Source: Trichoplax sp. H2
Taxonomy: Eukaryota
Direction of reading: 5' to 3'
Length of the DNA: 64,000 nt
NCBI GenBank assembly: GCA_003344405.1
Contig: NOWV01000154.1
Location: forward strand, 62,001 to 126,000
Part shown: positions 19,501 to 43,300 of the stretch, one piece after another
How the letters are laid out: each line of letters starts with the position of its first letter
Position numbering within the stretch: position 1 is the stretch's first letter
Made by a program: the position numbers and the translations under genes
Notes under the pieces: model-generated
Seen by the model: the letters and a program-made list of their open reading frames with translations, nothing else
What the model was told of the DNA's origin: nothing
The model's database searches: none

Positions 19501-19870
19501 TTTACAATTACCTATAAACCTTCCACTTACGGCAGAACACATCGTGCTAAATTAATTGTTCAGGTTTGCTTATCTTTTATAATAATTTTTTGTTAAGCAT
19601 GTAGATGTTTAAAATGTAGTTATATTTCGCTATATTTCTATTCCATTATAGACGAAGAATATGCAATGGACTTATGCAGTTAAAGGCTTACCCAAAGACT
19701 ATATCCCTCCTTCAGGCCATAGCACTGTCCATGCAACTAGTCATTCACTTATCCATAGAAGGCGTAATTTCGTACAGGAAAATCTAAAATTAACTACTGC
19801 TGGAGTCTCATCACCAATTAAAGGAGGGCCACTATTGCAGTCTAAACTTAATTTGATGAAATCGTTATAG
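4599..19870 (+). CDS. CFAP47: Cilia- and flagella-associated protein 47 (multiple ASH/Ig-like domains plus calponin-homology domain), multi-exon
   Basis: ATG 4599 (MDSGSVIAGIKIFPSVVQF...TLTLQNVS). Many phase-consistent GT-AG exons encoding Hydin/ASH-like beta repeats (e.g. VDFGT..KCVKIINEG, VEFGPTYYG, YDFGSCTV). Large exon 13069-15482 has a CH-like domain (ERILLDWLNYHF..RWVVNFSDDLMDGLVLACVLGAYAP). The C-terminus ENLKLTTAGVSSPIKGGPLL resembles the CFAP47 end. Stop at 19868-19870. Confidence 0.9.
9520..9624 (+). other. GC-AG intron in CFAP47
   Basis: Exon ends ...TGT GAG|GCAAGT and the next exon starts CAG|TTT GGG CAA in phase 0. Nearby GT donors are phase 1 and read-through hits TAA, so the GC donor is the frame-preserving choice. 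Confidence 0.75.
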
Positions 19871-20771
19871 TTATCCTAAGTAATATTACGTCAGTTAAAC
19901 TAAGATGTAGTTTGAATTATTGTATATATATACTAGCAAGATGCATTTGTATCAAAATTATGACCTTAAAATAGTACTATTGTAGCAGTAAACATAAACT
20001 AAGAACCTTTTGATAGATAAACATGTTTATTCTACTGATAAAAAGTACAATAAGCTTGACTTGGATAAATAGTAGAAATATAATGTAACATTGAATAATA
20101 TGGAATCTGTGTATATCTGTTAAAAATCTTATGATAGGAGATTATTATAAGCAATTTTCATAATCTAACCTTCATTTTAATATCTTTTACTTCTTCTTTG
20201 ACTTTTGTGCGTTGCATGATATCAACGAGATATCAATAAATGCATATTTAATGCGTAAAGTATGCGCAGTTACTTTACTTGGGTGAGGTATAGTTATTGA
20301 ACACAGACAATGAATAATTGTAGGCGGGTCGGACAAATGAATGATAGAGAATATCTATTCCCATCTAGTTACATTTGCAGCAACGTTCATAATGTAGCCT
20401 GCTACCAGTTCCATATTTTGCTTTGGATTTTACACTGCGGATATACAGAATGTACCCCACAGTTTATCTTCACAAAGTTACCGATCGTACCCAGTATTTT
20501 TGACATACTACTGTACAGTGTACAGTAGTTCCATGACTGTAACTAGTTCAAATATCAGATACTAGATAAACAATAAATGATACAGCTAAAATACTGTACA
20601 TACTATGATTAAAAATTGCAGATGTGAGTCATTAAGAAAGATTCGAAAGATTCTCTAGGTGAGGAATTCCTAACTATATTCAATTCTAGAAGCCTACTGT
20701 ACAAGTGTACATACTGCGGTGCTTAGTCTAATCCAGTATCAATATTTGGCACTAATTAGTCCATTATAAGT

Positions 20772-22106
20772 TTGTTATGCTATATTTGCGTATATTTGGA
20801 AGCCATAAATTGCGGGTATGTACTCTACTACTATCACGTAGCTGATATTATTGAGCGCAAATTAATGGTCCTAAACCTATCAAATTTATTCTTAAAACAG
20901 ATACTGTAACAGTCGAAATACAACCCATAAAAGATTGCTGCTTTGGTGTGAAAGTTGCCATTAATTGACGACTGAAGGGAATTTTTCATGCATCAATGTT
21001 ACAAGCGGGTAATTTAATTATACATGCACATTAATTACAAGCTTAACCAGCACACCATCCTATGAGAATGAGATTTCCAATAATATTAGCTGATTTTTAC
21101 ACTCAGTATATGCTCATATCTGTGTTATTTAAATCGTGACATATCGCTCGCTTTTAAGAGTTAAACTTTGAATTTTTAAAGTAGCGTATATTATATAATT
21201 GTTGTAAATGCAGCAATCACATAATTTGATAGATAAGTAATAAAGTAAGATAGAAAACTACATAGCCTTTGAAGAAGCTTATGTATATCGTCAGATAATT
21301 GGTTATTAATATCCAACTTAATAGCTATTGCCAATGTAACATAGCAGGTTACTAGAGTAATATCAAAAACGTTCTTTAATAATTGACTAAGTTGCATTTT
21401 TTGTATTATTTCGTGGCCTCCATAAAATCATCAAGACTACACTCTTATTAGTATGCTAGCAGGTCCCTCGCCCNNNNNNNNNNNNNNNNNNNNTTGTTAT
21501 GCTATATTTGCGTATATTTGGAAGCCACAAATTGCGGGTATGCACTCTACTGCTATCACGTAGCTGATATTATTGAGCGCAATTAATGGTCTTAAACCTA
21601 TCAAATTTATTCTTAAAACAAATACTGTAACAGTCGAAATACAACCCATAAAAGATTGCTGCTTTGGTGTGAAAGTTGCCATTAATTGACGACTATGAGA
21701 ATGAGATTTCCAATAATATTAGCTGATTTTTACACTCAGTATATGCTCATATCTGTGTTATTTAAATCGTGACATATCGCTCGCTTTTAAGAGTTAAACT
21801 TTGAATTTTTAAAGTAGCGTATATTATATAATTGTTGTAAATGCAGCAATCACATAATTTGATAGATAAGTAATAAAGTAAGATAGAAAACTACATAGCC
21901 TTTGAAGAAGCTTTTGTATATCGTCAGATAATTGGTTATTTATATCCAATTTAATAGCTATTGCCAATGTAACATAGCAGGTTACTAGAGTAATATCAAA
22001 AACATTCTTTAATAATGGACTAAGTTGCATTTTTTGTATTATTTCGTGGCCTCCATAAAATCATCAAGACGTCACTCTTATTAGTATGCTAGCAGGTCCC
22101 TCGCCC
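20772..22106. repeat. Near-identical tandem duplication (20772-21473 and 21494-22106) flanking a 20-N assembly gap; probably allelic haplotypes
   Basis: Both copies start TTGTTATGCTATATTTGCG and end GGTCCCTCGCCC. They differ by scattered SNPs and an ~88-nt segment (20974-21061) present only in copy 1. Ns occupy 21474-21493. Confidence 0.9.
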
Positions 22107-23632
22107 GTTATACTTCGCGTACTTTACCATACATATACAGTACATGTGTTCTTACTTTACTATTTTAACTCTAACTCAACGTAAGCAACATCAGAGCATT
22201 GCTAGCCCTTACATAGCAATGTCAATATCACCTTTTCTGTTCGAAGAGACTGAAAATAATCAATTTACTTTAAATAACGGAAATTCATTTTCTATACCAA
22301 AAATAACGTAATCTATGAATGATGTAACAATTATGCAATGGCCGAAAGTGATACGGTAACGACCATATTTAACACAACCATGTGAAATATCTTCATTATG
22401 GTATTGTTCGCTATGCTATATTTAACTTATTTGTCAATAACAATGTAATGCCGATTGTTTTTCTATTTTATTAACGTGTTTAAATTCCGGATATCTTCAC
22501 TTCAATTTCCCCATCAACTTCAGCATCTGTTATGTGTAAAGCCAGAACATAAATAACAAGCCATAGAATGATGATGGTGACTATAGCTTACTTTATCGTG
22601 ATTCTAAGATGTTAAAATTAAATGATATTAATAACCCTGTTTTCGGCAAAAGAAAGGATTCAATAAGGAGATTCTATTTTGAGCGATTTTAAGTATGTTG
22701 ATAAAGAAAGCGAGTTCATATAACGGTTTAGTTTAAGGACAATTTTACTAAGCACTTGCTTGGATTGACTGTGGTATCATTTCAATGCTTAAGATAGAAA
22801 GTAAACTTTGATGAAAAATGTAATACAGTGTTCATTCTTACATTAGTGCCTATTTAAAAATGATATACCGCTAGTACTAAACAATTATTGTCCCTATATC
22901 TTTCAATTAAGCGCACAAAAATTGAAAAACACCCACGCTTTACGGTAATTGCAAAATAAAGTTCTATTCCGGCGATATGTACAGATTAATTTACTACGAT
23001 AGGTATTTAGATCCACCCTTTCGGAAAAGAACTAAAGCGAGCGCTATTCATATTCAATACCCCACGCATTTGGCTTGACTTCCGCCGAGAATGAATTGTT
23101 GATCTATAGGATATTAGCCAACAATGAACCGCGAATACTATCAGTTAACTGATTGAGTAATACTGTAGTCTAATTCACTAACCTATAATACGTAGAGATC
23201 AATCATTTTTCATCTGTCGTAAACAATTTGAAGAGCTCTCGCAGTTAAAATGGGGTATAATTTATCTATCACACCATTTCATTTGTAACTACCAACTACC
23301 GGTAGGCGGTAACAAAAAAGCCTTCGACAAATTGAGAGGACTATTCCATGAATATTTATTTACTTTCCAACATACAATCTGTGGAGTATGAATATTATAC
23401 GGTCCTCTTCAGTTTAAATGTGTATTCGACTAAGTGCCACAGCTAGAAAGCTTCTGTTTTTATTCAAGTTGCTAGCAAACAATATTTAGACGGCTCAACT
23501 TGAATTAGTTCAGAGTTTTTCTATCTAACCGAGAGATATATTTGCAATATTGTTATAGTATTTGCTCTTAGAATAATTTAAATTGATTATGTAATATATT
23601 AAGGCTATACCATTACGAAGCTTCTTTTTAGG

Positions 23633-23872
23633 ATGCACGGTTATAAACTCTTGCTATTGAGAGATATTTTCAGACTGTCTTATATTTACTATACCGATTC
23701 TGTGGATGATGGAGCACATGAAAACATCGACAACAATATACGATTGAAGAAAATTGCGAAAGATTTGCAAAGAATTGGCGATGACTATTATGTTATTAAC
23801 TATTCGATGGTAATTCTAAAGGCTGTAAGAAGATACCTTGTAGCCTTATTTTTGGGTGAAAATCATCTATAA
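23633..23872 (+). CDS. Candidate BH3-only (Bim-like) pro-apoptotic protein; 79-aa ORF or terminal coding exon
   Basis: IAKDLQRIGDDYY (23753-23791) fits the BH3 consensus, followed by a hydrophobic/basic tail MVILKAVRRYLVALF (23807-23851). The ATG sits directly after a good acceptor (CTTCTTTTTAG|G ATG); a second in-frame acceptor is at 23673. No BH1/BH2 motif in the ORF. Upstream exons not resolved. Confidence 0.62.
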   Translation: MHGYKLLLLRDIFRLSYIYYTDSVDDGAHENIDNNIRLKKIAKDLQRIGDDYYVINYSMVILKAVRRYLVALFLGENHL

Positions 23873-26804
23873 ATTGTGATTAATAACGGTTTCATGACTG
23901 CGAACCTTACAATCATCTAATAAGGAAATATGATTTCTTAGTCTGCTATCAACACTGAATCATGCTAAAATCCTTTCATTTCAATCCTTTACTAACTAAA
24001 ATATTTGGTCATCAAAGTCAATTATCACTTATCATTTCATAATACATAACTGCTGTGCTGCACAGTATGGGCTTGGCACATAACAGTCGTTTCATCGTAT
24101 CAAAAAAGTTATCTTGACCCATATATCAATGTCATAGATAATAATTACTTCTACTTTGGTATAAGTGTACTCCTAACGTTTGTATTCTTCATAGAATATT
24201 TAATTTTATTGCAGAAGCAAACGTAATTTAGCGTGTATTAGAGTAAAATAACTAGGTATTTAAAAATAACACTCATCATCCAATAAATGCACTGTATTCA
24301 AATTTAGAGCATGGTAGATAATTTCAAATCTTATACGTTATTAGGATTGGTGTACCAGTATCACGTAATTCATAATTCATACTACACTCTTTGTATCATA
24401 CCATTTGGCTGAAATATTAATAAATTCATAATATAACCCAATAAACTCATCTCGTTCTCGATTCTAGGGAATATTATGATTTCTAACTAAGCCTTTATTC
24501 GATATTACAGCAATAAATTGATATATTATCAGATGATTTCTATAAATGCAAGTAAATTTGATTGATCGATTAAGGGTTAGAGAAATCATGTATCATCTAC
24601 TATATGATATTTATTTTACAATTTTGTAGGATGCCTTTACTGTGTATCATATGGATCTTCCACAGCTGTTTTATTATACATTAATAACTTTAACTAATAT
24701 GCTATTTGTATATCCTGTTCGAAATATCGTTCGATATTAACTTCGATATTATTATAAATCGTACAATATTGGCATGACAATTAATCAATTACCAACAAAT
24801 GCAGTTCTGGAAACATGTTTAGACATGTACAGGATAATGAAATGGAATTAGATTGCAACGATGACAAAAACAATTGTCAATTTCTCATATAGGAATAGTA
24901 AATGCATACATATTCGTAAGCCCACGTTATATTGAAAAAGTTAGTCTCATAAGGATATACTCTTTTTCAAACTACACCAATTGTTTTCAATTAATTAGCA
25001 AAAGAATTACGGATTGCATATTTGAAACTTTTCTTCTATTTCAGCATTCATTTATTAAAAGCAAGTATATAGATGATACAAAAACATGATAGTTAATATA
25101 TAATTAATGAATAAACGAGGCGATATCGAAATTTGATACGGTTGCAGTATTACTTATACTATATCCTAAAAAATATTTACGAAAGTTCTAGATTGCACCC
25201 ACTCTCATAACAATGAATTACGGCGTTTTACTTTCAAATATCTTTCATTTAATCTACGCAAAATGGTGAAGGAGCAGTGCTGCTTTTAACCATTTCAGTC
25301 GCCCTTAAATCGATCAACGGAGGATCCAATATACTTTCTAAACTAAATTTTATGCCGTTAGTATATAGTAAAAGACGTACAGGATATGTCTAGAAAACTG
25401 TATAATACGCGCATAGCATAATATAACTGACAAAATTGCGTCTTTATCGAAAAGCGTCAATCAAGGTACAATCTCAATGCACCAAACAATCAAATATCGA
25501 GTGCTAACTTATATTACGGTACTAAGAGCAGTCATAAAGTCCAGCAGTACGGTTTGGAATGCACATGATACACTTTTAGCCATACTATTGTATCATGGAC
25601 CACTAGAAATTTCTAGCAGTCGATATAAGCTGATGTAGCTGATGTGTACAGTAAACTGGAGTATCATAAATCCATGACTGTAAGTACTAGTGTTATTCAA
25701 CACTGTTAAATGCTTAGGATCCATAAAGATATGGTAAAAGAAAACCTAGGATCAATGGGAATTGCAACCATCAATTTTTTCTTTTGTTTCCTTTAATTAC
25801 AGTACGCTACTGTACCATTTCTATAAACCTTCGACATTATCCCGAATTTACATACAGCAAATACCCTGAAGTTCAGGCCTAAATTATTCAGAACGTTATC
25901 AAAACATAGTAATTATAGCAAAATTAATATGGTCGCTAAATTAATCAATGAGTAGAGTACAACGCCTTCAGTGATATGCTATCACATAATATTTGTGTCT
26001 GTATAGCATTGCATTAAGGCAATCGTTGAAACTTTTCTTTGTGACAATTTGCAGAAGCTATACTTTGGCTTTGTATCGTGCTTAGCAATCATTGAGTAAT
26101 AGCTTAGGAATCTCCTTATGGACGTTAGTAAGAATATAAACGATGATTTGCTCTACCTGACGTCTTAGATTAATTATATTTTATTCACTGAAATATCTTC
26201 AAATGACAGCACTTATAGTAGGTGGACCGTGTAATATCATTTGAGAAGCTAGGCTGGTAAAATGATAGACCAGTGGTGTTTTACCTTTTACCTACTACAT
26301 ACTGCATGTACATTTAATCTCTCAGTCTACACTGTAGTGAATGGTAAAAATGGCCTGAAATTCGTCCGTTTTGTGGACTAGACTAGAGCAGGGACTTGTC
26401 GAAATATTATGCAGCACTGTAATTGCAAATCGAATCATTTTTAGGTGGCCTAACCCTGTATTGGTATTTTATGAAACGTGGTGAAATGTTTTAGATTCAT
26501 TTTAATTATTTTAATTTAATTTATTTTTAATTTTATTTTTAATTATTTTTAACATGAATACATTAGAGGTCATGAATCCAAACAACACTGGACCAGACCT
26601 GCGGACACCTACTGTAATCGAGTGAGGCAGTATTAACTCATGAGCAAGTAAAATGTACAAAGTACCGTACTGTGTATGAGCCTACGGTATGATAATAACG
26701 TGTATCCGGTGTTGAGTTGTTTTACGGATTGCCAGGAAGGCTTCGTTTGGCTGGAGAGGATAAGCTTGATAATATAATTAATTAATAATCATCACAGGAC
26801 GGTA

Positions 26805-27218
26805 TACAGTACAGTACAGTACAGAAATTGTAATTGGCAGAGACATTGTACAGTACGTATCATAACATTTTGTCACTTTCGGGCAATATTTTTCATTAAA
26901 AATACAGTAAAGCTATAAATGCTATGCAATGTAACAACTTTTAATCAATATTTACTTATTAAGATCACTGGTTGATTCTTTTTATTTAAAGGTGACAAAA
27001 TACTTTGACACACACTGTTCAGTATAGTACTCCGTATACTATACAGTACTGTAGTGTACAGTACTGTGGTCTGTAAATCCGTAATACTGTACAGTACGAT
27101 AAAAGGTCCTTTAAAAGGTCCACAAGGTCGAACTTTTTGTACATGCGCAATTCAGTCTTTCGGGATAGGGATTACCATCAATCATTCGGCAGTACAGTAC
27201 AGTAGAACAGTACAGTAA
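26805..27218. repeat. TACAG/CTGTA-rich low-complexity tract upstream of COX17
   Basis: Runs such as TACAGTACAGTACAGTACAG (26805-26824), mixed-orientation copies at ~27020-27100, and AGTACAGTACAGTAGAACAGTACAGTA just before the ATG. Confidence 0.75.
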
Positions 27219-27269
27219 TACTAGTTGATCTATCGCTCTCTCTCATATTAGTAATATTGCTAATAAATT

Positions 27270-28092
27270 ATGGACGACAAAAAATCCAAAGAAACCCCGA
27301 AGAAATTGAGACCTTGTTGTGCTTGCCCTGAAACTAAAAAAGCTCGGGATCAGTGGTAATTCTTATCTACTTTTAAGCCTATTTGTATATGATACATATG
27401 TAAAAATAGTTGGTAAATCTATTGGACTTGATCCTACTTTTGTCATAATACCGTAATGTACAGTACTGTACTACTAGGGTACTATGCAGTCCAGCTGCAT
27501 ATTCTAGTATGCAGTAGTCCATCGCTTAACTTTACGCTATAGACTACCTTTTTTTCGGAGCCTTCTCTTTAGTAGTCTGTAAATCATGATTGTTCAGCAT
27601 TGTACTTGTCATTGCAGCTTCTTTTTTCAATCAATTTCTTCAATGTAGCATTCTACAAGCATCATCCTTAGTATACTGTGCTGAAATTAATCAGCTATGC
27701 CCTCGTTTTCTCGATCCCAGTTACGACACAATAAATATAGCATTGTGCTTTGCAGTATATGCCTCATGTTACCGAAAATCAAGCATCTAAAACTGTAGCC
27801 CAGCTGTACATGCAATATTATTTACAAGTCATATAATCAACAATAGTATCAGCATATTATTATATATTGATCAGTTTTGTAACTGCTTACTAATGGCTTC
27901 ATTTCGCTACTTTAAACTCGAAACTGCTGATACAATGCTTGATAACCCGTGTATCATTGTAAAAGCACTTAAACGTTGACGTTATAATTTTTTCATTTTT
28001 TACACAGCATGATAGAGAAAGGTGAAGCAGACTGTCAAGACTTAATAGAGGCGCATAAAGATTGCTTAAGACAGCATGGTTTCAAGGTCTAA
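27270..28092 (+). CDS. COX17: Cytochrome c oxidase copper chaperone COX17 (2 exons: 27270-27355, 28008-28092; 56 aa)
   Basis: Spliced product [56 protein letters not shown], with the PCCACPETK copper motif and twin CX9C. Canonical GT-AG phase-2 intron. Missed by the ORF track. Confidence 0.97.
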
Positions 28093-37354: not shown

Positions 37355-38870
37355 CGTACTGTACGCAATACTGTACTGTACGAGTGTACGTACTGTACAC
37401 TGTGTACAGTACTGTACAGTACAGTACTGAGATCCTGTCCTACTGTACAGTATACTGTACTGTACAGTACAGTACTGTGACCGTGCACTATGCACCGTAC
37501 TGTACTGGACAGTACAGTACTGAGATCCTGCCCTATACTGTACTGTACAGTACTGTACTGTGACCGTGCACTACTGTATGCACTGTACAGTACTGTACTG
37601 GACACTTGGACAGTACAGTACAATACAGTACTTACAGTACTGTATCTACTATAGTGTTTATGATCAATGATCATAAGTTCATAACAATGCAGCAGTGTCA
37701 GTCCTTTTTCAGTCCATGATTTTGAAAGCATAAGAAAATCTACTTTATTTCAGAGTTCTTGTGATTGCTCTACTACGGCACTGTATTCGTAGGAACTGTA
37801 CAATGCTGTACAGCAGGATTTCTTAAAGACAGAATCTTAGTATTTTATTATAAAGATCTTTTTTATGTCTCTCAATGAGTTTCTTCTATGGTTTAAAATA
37901 ATGAGTTCAACACAGAGCTGGTCATTACTATTTCTTTTTCTTTACATGTTCCTGATAGCATTTCTTGACTCGATAGTGAATCAAGAATATTCAGAGAGCC
38001 TTGAGCCCTTGACTTTGAGTACTGTACTCTACAGTGCACAGTGTACAGTACCATGACTGTACTGCGTAAACCAGAGAAATTTCGCTTCGGTTCACTACTT
38101 TTGCTGACAGTCACTACTGTACACGTAACAGTAAATTGCTATCTACTGTATTGTACAGTTTCACAATGTCGCAACAGTAAAGTACAGTACTATGTACTAC
38201 AGTGTACAGTACAGTATTGTAAAAGCCCATACAGTATACTGTACTGTACTATACAGTACAGTGTACAGTACGCTACAGTGTACAGTACTGTACATGGTCT
38301 GGTCCGGTCCGGACCGTCTACAGAATACTGTACTGTACTGTACAGTAGAATTCAAAGATGGATCTACAGTACTTTATACTGTACACTACAGCAAGCGCGT
38401 TATACTGTACAGTACTATGCGTAGTACTGTATGGGATAGTAATAATATTAAGGTAATATTAATTACAATATTATACTGTACAGTACTGTACCATCTTAGT
38501 ACTGATAGTACTGATCGCAACATACTGTACAGTACAGTACAGTACTGTACAGTACAGTGTTCATGGTCTGGTCCGGTCTGGACCGTCTGCAGAATAGAAT
38601 TCAAAGATGGACCTACAGTACGTTATACTGTACTATACAGTACAGCGTACAGTAGTTGTACTGTACTGTACTGTACTGTACTGTACTGTATGTCAAGGTT
38701 AAACAATTTGGGTAGCGAATCTGGATCACAAAGTAGATAGTGTACGCTTGCAGACTTATGGCATTATTGAAATGACCAGCAATACAGTCGGCATCCTGGA
38801 TTTGACTCAACGCTGACATTAAGTACTGCACTGTACACTGTACACTGTACAGTACAGCAGATACTACAGT
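37355..38870. repeat. TACAG/CTGTA pentamer low-complexity region with internal direct repeats, upstream of ARID1
   Basis: Dense TACAG/CTGTA units in both orientations (37355-37645, 38018-38870) and a pure (CTGTA)6 at 38661-38690. Direct repeats at 37417-37490/37510-37573 and 38293-38372/38562-38621. Confidence 0.9.
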
Positions 38871-39255: not shown

Positions 39256-40351
39256 TCATTCGTAATCGTCCTCAAGGGTGTTATAAATTGTGCTGAGAAT
39301 GAGAACTTTTGAGCGGGTAGGCTGAGCTTGACTTTTCGGTTTGCGAATGAACTTGGTTAAACAAGTCGCTGGAAGAATAAATAATCTTTTAAATACAGCT
39401 CTACCAGTTATGGTATACAAGAATGGATTAACAGCAGAATTAATAGGAAGTGCAAAAATACCAACAAATTGTAATGTAATAACATCAACACCTCTACTGG
39501 TTATGAAACCAAAATTATTCACAGCATAATACGGTACCCAGCTAATCAAGTCAGTTATCAGTATGACACATAGACGCATTGCAAGTATTTTACTTTCCTT
39601 GGGAATTATTTTTCCAGCGGCTTTTCTAGTTTTGTACACAGAAATAAATATCCCAACGTAAAGGGTGCAAGTGATAATCCAACCAATAATAGTGAGAAAT
39701 ATATAGATTATCATCCAAATGCGGTACAAATAGTTTTCATAATTGCTTGGCATACACATGCTGTTGTACGTATATAATCGATTATGACCTGGTTTATCGA
39801 TACTGAATGATGCCGGCACAAGTGCAAATGTAAAGCAAGCTAGCCATATTATACCGGTAATCACTCGAGTAGCAAGCATGCTCAACTTTTCTGCCTTAAA
39901 CACCAAAGCTATAACGATAAACCTATCGACACTGATTATTAACATTAAAAAGACAGAGACTAAGCTTGATGTAGTCACAAGGATGCAAGATAATACACAT
40001 AAAGGATTCCTTAACCACTCCTCTGACCGTTGACCATACTGATTATTGTTGTAATTTGAATTAGCAAATGCTATAATAAATAGGTAAATTGACATAACAA
40101 GATCAGACATGGCTAGATTATTGATTAGTAGAATATGAACTTTCCCTTGAGTATTATTGAGATAACAGTTCTGAATAATAACAATGATATTGCCAAAAAA
40201 CGCCAAGCAACCAACAACCCAGACGAAGTACTGTAATGAAATATGAGCAAGAAGGTGCTGACATGATGATAAAGTATCAGATATCATCGATGGTTCACAG
40301 GTCACAATTTTAGCAGGTATTATACAACAAAAATAAGGGCGATTCGTTAAC
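39256..40351 (-). CDS. Terminal exon: hinge plus rhodopsin-class 7TM domain of the LGR
   Basis: Acceptor TGTCAATAG|G. Hinge YFCC..TCEP..DTLSSCQHLL, TM motifs GNIIV, NLAMSDLVMSIYL, ISVDRF, ITDLISWVP, LPINSAVNPFLY, typical of LGR/relaxin-receptor-type GPCRs. Confidence 0.93.
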
Positions 40352-43300
40352 CTATTGACATGTTACACAGCCGAAAAGAAGATAGCGCACTTTAAGCTCA
40401 ATGGTTGATGTAAACGTACTATATGAAAGTAGGAAAATTGCAAGACATGGCCTCGCAGACTTACGTTTCCACCAACTGAGGTGGACCATAAAAGGATTTT
40501 CGGGATACATAGGCTAATAGATTCCCTCGTAAATCGCTAAAGATGGGAGAAATACGCAATTTTTAATTTTCGCTTTCATGTAAAGTGACCACACATAAAG
40601 TTTGTAATATAGCAATACAATAGCATAGTCTTCGAAATAGCTCAAAATTTATCTGATAAGGACGGCTTTAAATATCGGGTGGATAAATTGAACTGGTACA
40701 AACAATGGATTTGTAGTAAATTACTATATTTGTAGCCTACATGAAAAGATTTGAAAGATTTAATGTGTAATGATAAACAACGGTATTTGGCTATGCGATA
40801 AAGTGATCTTCAAAACAATAAATCAAGAACTACAGTTTCTTGCAAATTTCACTTTATTACAGAAGTTAGGTTCGTCTAACTACCAAGGACTATCTGACTA
40901 TCTGATAATCTACTTATTACAGCAAAATTCACGATTTATATACGATTAGTTACAGAATGCTTTTAAGTTTATAACTTCTAAGCGTAACGAACGGATCAAT
41001 ATTGCAATATTAGATAATCAGGTTATAAGAGAGAAGAATGTTTAACAGGTGTGATCATACTGTATTTAAGTAATCTTCACATAAAAAAATGTTGCATTGC
41101 GATATATCTCTTGTCGCATAAACTAAAATTATCTGTACGTACACGATAACAATGATGCGTCAATTCAATTATGATTACCAGGAAGTATACAAATTTGTAT
41201 TTCCTCTCTGACTACATCGTATATCTTAAAAATTCAGATTAGTAACAATAGAGTCATTACTTTTCACCCTTTGTAACTCCTAACACTTACAGTTTTTGCA
41301 ATCTTGATAAACCTTTAAAGCATCTTTCCTGCAGCGTTTCAATTTTGTTTCTGCTTGCATCGCTTTATCATCAATTACGATTTTTATTAGTTATAGTCAA
41401 CAAGCTTAACAACTAATTAACAACAACTGAACTAAATTTGCAAATACGTGTTAACACTAAACATACTCAAGTTTCAGACTTACATCAAATTTATGTTCGG
41501 AAATAGTTCAACTATGTCCAAATTTGGCCTACATAATCCTTCAACCTTGTTATTCGATATATTACTGATTCATTTAGACATAAGTATTAGTACATTGATT
41601 ATATTATGCTTAAATTAATAAACTTTATTTGCATTAAACTATTTTGCAGCGATAATCTTGTTAAGAAACAAGTCCAATACATTACGGTATTATTCTATGA
41701 GAATAAAGATCATAACAGAATATTTCGAAAATCATACTTACAGTTTTTCCATATTTTTAAATCGAATTGTTAGTGTAGATTTTATCTTTTTTAGGCTATT
41801 TTTTGCAATATTTCTAAAAGAAATATCGAAATTTTATTAAATACAATATCTGTTTTCTCTAATAAACAGTCTCTTTTTGCTGTTAGATGATACGACACAA
41901 TACTTACAATTCTACTAATTCATTCAAATCATTCAAAGAGACGTCAACCATATCAAATTCATGTATGTTGTTATCATTTAATGATCTATTATTTAGAAAA
42001 GACATCAATTTAAGTAATTATATAAATATATCAGTTTGCTTGCACCAACGATTCTATCTTTAGAGCACTACATTAAATTTAATCTAAAATAAATTATACT
42101 ATGATATGATCACGGTAAATTTTATTGTAACATCAAGTTATTAAAATAACACACTTACAAAATTTTAAGTTTGTAAAACACGGTAAAGGCCTTTCCAGGA
42201 ATAGTGGATATATTGCATTTACTTAAATTACTATAAAAATTTTTTTAATTTAGAAAAAAAAGCTGATTATAAACCTTGCAAATCAGACATTATATTCAGT
42301 TTAGTTAAATTTCGATAATTCTTTAAAAAATTTATGCCAGAAAGTTCTGTGCTTAAAGCTGAATTTCTGTTCACTTTCTTGTCCTTAAACTACCAAGATT
42401 AAGTTATGATTGCTTAAAATTTAAATATAGTTAGGCGTATACAATGCCTAAATTACACCTTTCGATAATTTATTTCTATTATTAAATTGCGAATATCCCA
42501 CTACGTGATAAGATTTGTCTAGAATTTAATGTCAACTACGAATTCAGTATGGATTTACCATACTACATATCATTTTATAGTCAACTATATAACGGATGGT
42601 AAACTAGATATATTGCAACAAACATAGGCAATATCAGTTATAGATCCTCTTAAATGTACCCGTCCTCTGCCGTCCGACTCAGCTCAACAAGATACTCTAA
42701 GTAGAGGATCGTTAACCGAAGTCATAATTGCTTTTATTGGCTTTAAAACTCTCTTAAATTAGTTCAATACTTTTACGTGAAATAAGTAAATATAAAATCA
42801 GCATCTGTAATTTTACGCTGTCCAACTGTTATCAGTATCCAATACAGTATTATGCATATTGCATAAGGAAACACCGTATTTACATGCTACGGTCAAGACA
42901 GCTCATTATTACTTCGCTTACTTACATTCCGATAAGAAACGGCCCAACACGTTCGTATAAATCATCGATGAAGGTGTCCAATACTATTGGATTATCGCTT
43001 ACATCTCTATTTGCTCAAAAAAGTTCCGAAATCGATCTCAAATTCTTCTTAAGTAATATATTTTATAAAGTTAATAGCTCTATGCATAATACTTATAAGC
43101 TCGTCTACTGTAAATAACAATATTTAAGATTCTAGACTGAATTATCGGGTTAATGTTTTATCACCTGACATATTCATCACAGTGCATAGATGTAACTTAG
43201 ACATTCATAATGTAAGGGAAGTATTTAATAGTTCATAATGAAAAGTTTTCCCAGTAAAAGATTTATAAAGAGGATCTATTGGCATACGTACAACTTCAAG

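Follow-up and report, generated by a model that had tools for sequence, protein, structure and literature searches.

We describe an unannotated and conserved gene of Trichoplax whose 79-amino-acid product carries an intact BH3 core near those of the native Bak and Bax ligands, which makes it a concrete candidate for a BH3-only protein. The gene lies between CFAP47 and COX17 in the window that we analyzed, a 64,000-nucleotide stretch of Trichoplax sp. H2 DNA (GenBank assembly GCA_003344405.1, contig NOWV01000154.1, positions 62,001 to 126,000). Comparison with two homologous proteins makes it very probable that this is a real small protein-coding gene. We propose that it is a single-copy gene that may work as a BH3-only ligand of the animal's own Bcl-2 family, a reading that we regard as plausible, if short of probable. 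In the excerpts of the cited papers on which our comparisons with the literature draw, the Trichoplax genome had been searched and no BH3-only gene had been found (PMC7527217, PMC8998228), in agreement with the original prediction. That absence was read to mean that early animals ran mitochondrial apoptosis with multi-motif Bcl-2 proteins alone, with trBak (trBcl-2L4) suggested as the placozoan substitute for BH3-only proteins (PMC7527217, PMC8998228); the excerpt of PMC7527217 leaves a divergent, "elusive" BH3-only protein possible. Among the titles and abstract openings of the literature on placozoans and BH3, we found no claim of a placozoan BH3-only protein. The gene described here may encode the apoptosis trigger that was reported missing from placozoans.

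The candidate coding sequence occupies positions 23633..23872 of the plus strand, and its translation yields the 79 residues, with the terminal letters originally predicted, followed by a TAA stop. The stop-to-stop frame opens at 23603 and comprises 89 codons; it is closed 10 codons 5' of the ATG by an in-frame TAA (23600-23602, +), and it contains just two in-frame ATGs, one at 23633 and one at 23807. Directly before the first ATG lies a pyrimidine run ending in AG, cttctttttag (23621-23631, +), which matches the prediction of a splice acceptor immediately upstream and which is either the acceptor of an intron in the 5' UTR or a coincidence. This acceptor-like element, together with the CFAP47 exons that a Pfam and ORF survey placed 5' of the candidate on the same strand and reaching to ~19.9 kb, would also be expected if the frame were the terminal coding exon of some longer transcript, such as an alternative 3' exon belonging to CFAP47, in which case the protein would not be BH3-only. 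We consider such an arrangement highly improbable, because Met1 is invariant and forms the start of all three homologous proteins (P0001, encoded in the window, and P0002 and P0003, described below), because the upstream TAA interrupts the frame, because no case of P0001 fused to other sequence, of any length, was found among 1.84 billion representative proteins, and because no Pfam domain was detected in the five longest ORFs tested at 19.9-23.4 kb. The aligned start of the three proteins thus makes the suggestion that upstream exons contribute to the protein unlikely. A contig from a second Trichoplax DNA run (X1), which spans 21693-24025, contains the candidate ORF intact with substitutions only, and it carries a 1-base deletion at 23612 that disrupts the frame 5' of the ATG. 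We conclude that 23633 is the start codon because the Met is conserved, a stop codon lies upstream, the X1 deletion breaks the frame before the ATG, and residues 1-20 are conserved. The conserved Met and first 20 residues (11/20 invariant) also rule out a second acceptor, at 23674, which had been put forward as an alternative beginning of the coding sequence. The candidate therefore probably consists of a single coding exon.

Downstream, the candidate ORF is adjoined on the same strand by COX17 exon 1 (27270-27353, +), which encodes the M-D-D-K... C-C-A-C-P-E-T-K-K stretch, scores 27.5 bits against a Pfam COX17 cut-off of 24.9 and is followed by a GT donor. Beyond COX17 lie an ARID/BAF250 gene on the minus strand and then a rhodopsin-type GPCR in a single-exon ORF (39259-40287, within 39256-40362, minus strand) with 99% identity to T. 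adhaerens TRIADDRAFT_56441. Most other named matches are also Trichoplax proteins, which assigns the window to a Trichoplax of the H1/H2 group. An annotated protein of 543 aa, which carries leucine-rich repeats as well, matches the GPCR ORF with its C-terminal part, and Trichoplax has several paralogues of this ORF at 40-69% identity. From 41000 to 64000, the window holds 23 kb at a G+C content of 0.27-0.31 with three ORFs of at least 90 codons and no Pfam match; this stretch is either gene-poor or contains genes with short exons.

Around the candidate itself, nine further ORFs at 19.6-25.6 kb gave no Pfam match below E 0.01, a scan of 19800-27400 with Rfam identified no family, and tblastn revealed no paralogue of the candidate ORF within the window. 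The first AATAAA poly(A) signal occurs at 24282, 410 nt 3' of the candidate stop, and is uninformative about the gene. Depth in run X1 was 80.7 in the bin containing the locus (23476-24009) and ~80 in the adjacent bins, which indicates that the locus is not a repeat. Four runs (X1, X4, X5 and X8) behave as expected of genomic DNA: their depth is even, and no joint occurs at the candidate ORF. A scan for p53 sites from 20 to 26 kb gave only two half sites and no full site, and p53 was not considered further.

Several features of the assembly were observed in the same part of the window. The 20 N at 21474-21493 lie between near-identical direct copies (20772-20860/21494-21582, 20860-20973/21581-21694 and 21060-21359/21693-21992; 97-99% identity), and X1 depth in the bins of these copies was 35.9 and 45.2, about half of the surrounding ~80. 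The copies between 20772 and 21992 appear to result from a duplication that the assembly introduced at the gap rather than from a true tandem repeat. Inside the duplicated stretch, a 73-aa ORF on the minus strand (21497-21718) gave a weak Pfam match to VP1/VP3 viral structural proteins (E 0.029, 14.8 bits against a cut-off of 25), which is probably due to chance. Short repeats of the TACTG/TACAGTA type occur at 20509-20527, 26805-27450, 37369-37632 and 38229-38293, with one block directly 5' of COX17 and tandem arrays near 37.4 and 38.2 kb. Contig depth at these repeats rises to 513 and 2413 compared with ~80, and many contigs end or join at 20527/26805; the repeat is a very high-copy simple element of the Trichoplax genome.

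The principal evidence for a gene comes from its relatives. A phmmer search with P0001 against 1.84 billion representative proteins returned exactly one match, P0002, a protein of 76 aa with 51% identity to P0001 (E 1.1e-14; residues 3-75 aligned to 3-76), and a profile of P0001 and P0002 retrieved P0003, also of 76 aa (E 5.4e-28, 43-44% identity). Both relatives are automatic ORF calls in public assemblies, their sources being a single 11,086-base contig in Logan and contigs from ENA no longer than 981 bases; scans of metagenome contigs and genome contigs gave no match for the DNA of the homologues. The alignment of the three proteins covers their whole lengths and needs a single gap of one residue; they share the initial Met, and each terminates at G75 or shortly beyond it. 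Their pairwise identities are 38/75, 33/75 and 53/76, and 29 of the 75 columns of the three-sequence alignment are invariant. The exact P0001 sequence was absent among ~15 billion protein sequences, and no protein of 43-139 aa sharing three 5-residue words with P0001 was found. The collection searched does contain Trichoplax proteins from NCBI and UniProt; among the annotated proteins of Trichoplax that these databases include, the candidate is missing.

These relatives bear on a different explanation, namely that there is no gene here and that the frame is a chance opening in AT-rich intergenic DNA, or in a conserved non-coding element, and happens to be intact in the few related assemblies in which automatic gene callers registered it. 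In neutral simulations that were seeded with the window ORF and allowed substitutions only, the proportion of 2000 replicates with an open frame was 4.8% at 50% identity and 3.4% at 44%, and frameshifts would lower the open fraction further. A neutral frame would thus be open in only 3-5% of such simulations across the observed range of 44-51% identity. Furthermore, the sole gap is a whole codon, the starts and ends of P0001-P0003 coincide, and the amino acid replacements are more conservative than expected under neutrality (17/37, 19/42 and 12/23, against an expectation of ~0.29-0.34), with binomial P values of 0.053, 0.019 and 0.056 for three comparisons that are not independent of one another. 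In favor of there being no gene, protein databases record only open frames, so that broken copies would be invisible there. We regard the conservation of the homologues as good, though not perfect, evidence for a protein-coding gene, and we judge the absence of a gene to be improbable.

The codon usage of the window ORF shows no sign of coding. Its log-odds value was -0.086 per codon, which lies within the non-coding spread: 45 ORFs of at least 60 codons from unannotated stretches had a mean of -0.124 (sd 0.07), and 10 of the 45 scored at least as high as the candidate. Exons supported by Pfam scored 0.074-0.179, as measured on the same exons that formed the training set. Nor is the length of the frame remarkable for the region, as 89 codons are ordinary where further ORFs of 72-82 codons occur in the same 10 kb. 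Compared with X1, the candidate ORF shows three nonsynonymous changes (Y53C, Y68F and E76G) and one synonymous change (site ratio 3.77), which gives no sign of constraint, four changes carrying no power; the three replacements fall at variable positions or beyond the ends of the homologues. Differences from X1 amount to 4/240 nt in the ORF and 28/2332 nt in the flanks, for a run diverged by ~1.2%, and conservation in this comparison is no higher inside the ORF than around it. Each of these observations speaks for the absence of a gene.

The same caution applies to the motif when it is considered within the window alone. The BH3-like core, I41-A-K-D-L45-Q-R-I48-G49-D50-D-Y52 (23753..23788, +), was recognized by pattern match and alignment, with hydrophobic residues at i, i+4, i+7 and i+11, a small residue, and Gly-Asp. 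To gauge chance expectation, the window was simulated 300 times with a first-order Markov model and translated in all six frames. The strict pattern (h1-small-xx-L-xx-h3-G-D-x-h4) occurred at a mean of 0.057 per window, so that the motif alone would be expected in ~6% of windows, and the observed count was reached in 16/300 simulations. When G, A or S was allowed at the Gly position, the mean rose to 0.36 per window and the observed count was reached in 92/300 simulations, and a loose BH3 pattern matched six times in the window compared with a simulated mean of 5.6 (reached in 144/300). Although the candidate core is the window's only match to the mid, strict and Bim-like patterns, the strict match is not significant by itself, and at the level of the window alone the assertion that the motifs were unlikely by chance did not hold. 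What raises the candidate above chance is that it is conserved in two homologues.

Across P0001-P0003, the core takes the form [I/V]-A-[K/R]-[D/E]-L-Q-x-I-G-D-[D/S]-Y, in which A42, L45, I48, G49, D50 and Y52 are invariant and position 41 is I, I and V. Seven positions (the four hydrophobic residues, the small residue after h1 and the Gly-Asp) were fixed by definition before the homologues were seen. Six of these seven are invariant, compared with 29/75 columns overall (hypergeometric P 0.0118), which suggests, from three sequences, that the BH3 motif has been kept by selection in the relatives. The 18-mers surrounding the motif have hydrophobic moments of 0.39-0.69. The published minimal definition of a BH3 calls for L-x3-[G/A/S]-D together with one acidic residue and four hydrophobic ones (PMC10107002, PMC9171138), and these elements are present in P0001 as I41, L45, I48, Y52, G49 and D50. 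The protein shows no other BH motif and no Bcl-2 fold, as it is 79 aa long and matches no Pfam family at E values up to 10. The letters that are hallmarks of BH1 and BH2, NWGR-like and GGW-like, are absent from the 79 residues and no Pfam Bcl-2 domain is found, in agreement with the original prediction.

Conservation of a motif can also arise in a protein that has nothing to do with apoptosis. The candidate could be a real, lineage-restricted small protein with a role unrelated to Bcl-2, such as a small membrane-associated or helical-hairpin protein, in which L-x-x-I-G-D-x-Y is structural and only mimics a BH3; we consider this somewhat unlikely, and less so than the absence of a gene. The homologues and the open frame fit such a protein equally well, and BH3-like patterns are notorious for false positives, having been described in the excerpt of PMC9171138 as of "little to no predictive value." No profile or structure-sequence search linked the candidate to a BH3 family. 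Moreover, an N-terminal hydrophobic and basic segment comprising residues 1-20 (23633..23692, +; M..YK....RD..RLSY.YY) is as conserved as the motif block, with 11/20 invariant columns compared with 9/17. Against an unrelated role, all seven motif positions are kept at the probability given above, the 4-3-4 spacing is correct and falls on a strongly amphipathic segment, the core lies near the native Trichoplax and Hydra BH3 ligands, including the Tyr at the fourth position and the G-D-S-Y ending, and the size and C-terminal hydrophobic segment fit those of small anchored BH3-only proteins.

Among known BH3-only proteins, we can name none with a counterpart of the N-terminal segment. The segment could serve to mask the BH3, or the protein could be a small folded unit; a conserved hydrophobic segment at this position would argue for some structure, and classical BH3-only proteins are described as disordered (PMC8998228). 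Residues 21-37 form an acidic, variable linker (23693..23743, +) in which 4/17 columns are invariant. After the core, residues 55-75 make up a basic and hydrophobic, helix-like tail (23795..23857, +; 5/21 columns invariant), with best 18-residue Kyte-Doolittle means of 1.40, 1.97 and 1.52 in the three homologues. K63 is invariant in this tail, and the homologues carry basic residues at 66/67. The tail is borderline as a membrane span and looks nearer to an amphipathic anchor than to a classical transmembrane span, and it possibly serves as a membrane anchor or as a second binding site.

Returning to the reading of the candidate as a BH3-only ligand, we infer every step of the mechanism past the conservation of the motif. 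The tail would anchor the protein to the outer membrane of the mitochondrion. An amphipathic helix formed by residues 37-54 would occupy the groove of trBcl-2L1 or trBcl-2L2 (or trBax), its I41, L45, I48 and Y52 filling the four pockets and its D50 predicted to pair with the arginine conserved in the groove (R97 of trBcl-2L2). The bound protein would then free or activate trBax, and the membrane would be permeabilized.

The candidate had originally been presented as a genuine BH3-only gene resembling Bim. Of this claim, the homologues bear out a very probably real, unannotated placozoan coding gene whose best preserved feature is the BH3-like core, and kinship to Bim finds no support: none of the three members matches a Pfam family, including Bim_N (PF06773) and Bclx_interact (PF08945) at E values up to 10, and the phmmer search of 1.84 billion representatives returned no Bim. 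When the whole protein, the profile and a 26-mer were compared with PDB sequences, no BH3 or Bcl-2 chain was retrieved. A language-model search with P0001 listed several BH3-only neighbors (PXT1 0.85; BMF 0.83, 0.81 and 0.81; Noxa 0.83; Bim 0.81; Bik 0.78), all of which lie below 0.9, where a score counts as a lead only, and the same search with P0003 returned only bacterial HepT-like clusters, with no BH3-only family and no Bim. The language-model lead to BH3-only families is thus weak, and the result for P0003 would be expected of a protein with an unrelated role. The 12-letter BH3 string quoted for human Bim does stand in the literature, and 7 of its 12 letters match I41-Y52. These letters are no particular pointer to Bim, however, because the L-x-R/x-I-G-D-D core is equally near to Hydra Bax, Hydra BH3-only-2 and Trichoplax Bak and Bax, and the likeness is one that any canonical BH3 would show. 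The tail string quoted for Bim was not found among the listed literature, but it fits the residues given in the excerpt of PMC6980855, where the Bim C-terminal sequence is an amphipathic helix with V124, I125, L129 and I132 on one side and R130 and R134 on the other. The supposed echo of this string in the candidate does not survive comparison with the homologues, as the letters MVIL are specific to P0001, with MAIL and VKIW in their place in the homologues, and I61 and K63 are the sole invariant residues of this stretch. With no Pfam Bim family, no phmmer match to Bim and no conservation of the tail letters, a Bim orthologue was rejected, and the candidate is an analogue of BH3-only proteins rather than a demonstrable orthologue of Bim.

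As an analogue, the candidate shares with Bim the 7/12 letters of the BH3 and, in both proteins, a hydrophobic C-terminal helix that follows the BH3, is amphipathic and bears Arg or Lys (PMC6980855). The candidate tail begins only 7 residues past Y52, whereas in BimL the BH3 is at 85-97 and the C-terminal sequence at 120-132 (PMC6980855). At 79 aa, P0001 is much shorter than Bim, and it is without a T-Q-T. This T-Q-T is a dynein-light-chain motif.

We consider it possible, with somewhat more doubt than attaches to the candidate gene's proposed function, that placozoans own a dedicated BH3-only trigger in the form of this family of 76-79 aa. If so, the three-tier Bcl-2 switch of BH3-only protein, guardian and effector would be older than the split of placozoans, cnidarians and bilaterians, trBak would not be the sole BH3-only substitute, and a BH3 and a basic amphipathic tail 7 residues apart could represent a minimal form of Bim-type two-site binding. 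If the BH3 function proves true, BH3-only regulators would date from an earlier point in animal evolution, and if it proves false, the current model would be the stronger for it. Under either outcome, the locus represents a gap in the annotation of small genes.

The known system to which the candidate can be compared most directly is the animal's own. Its core is near the BH3s of Trichoplax Bak and Bax and shares with trBak the order I, small, x, x, L, x, x, I/L, G, D, S/D, Y (PMC7527217). In the crystal structure of trBcl-2L2 with trBak, I109, L113, L116 and Y120 occupy the four pockets and D118 pairs with R97 (PMC7527217, excerpt). The Tyr at the fourth pocket position is common to P0001-P0003, the G-D-S-Y at the end of the core is identical in P0002 and P0003, and the candidate Asp corresponds to the trBak Asp that pairs with R97 of trBcl-2L2 (PMC7527217). 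The residue before h1 is Glu108 in trBak and Lys in the candidate, and therefore one auxiliary salt bridge would not be kept. In contrast to trBak, which is a multi-motif protein with a Bcl-2 fold, the candidate has 79 aa, lacks BH1 and BH2, and shows no detectable homology to it.

Outside placozoans, the candidate resembles HyBH3-only-2 of Hydra in being a small non-bilaterian protein with a BH3 only (PMC7489894, PMC8998228). The two have 6/12 letters of I41-Y52 in common, including the L and I-G-D-D, and the Hydra Bax peptide has 7/12 (PMC7489894). No sequence homology between HyBH3-only-2 and the candidate was found by phmmer among 1.84 billion representatives. Of the BH3-only proteins whose binding has been measured, HyBH3-only-2 has so far been the one that branches earliest, with a KD of 149 nM to HyBcl-2-4 and with killing activity (PMC7489894, PMC8998228). 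A further parallel is provided by sayonara of Drosophila, a larger protein of a coiled-coil family that was validated genetically and biochemically (PMC10107002). Sayonara was first noticed through a weak likeness to a vertebrate BH3, which its authors read as convergence, and like the candidate it is a late BH3-only find in a lineage long thought to be without one (PMC10107002).
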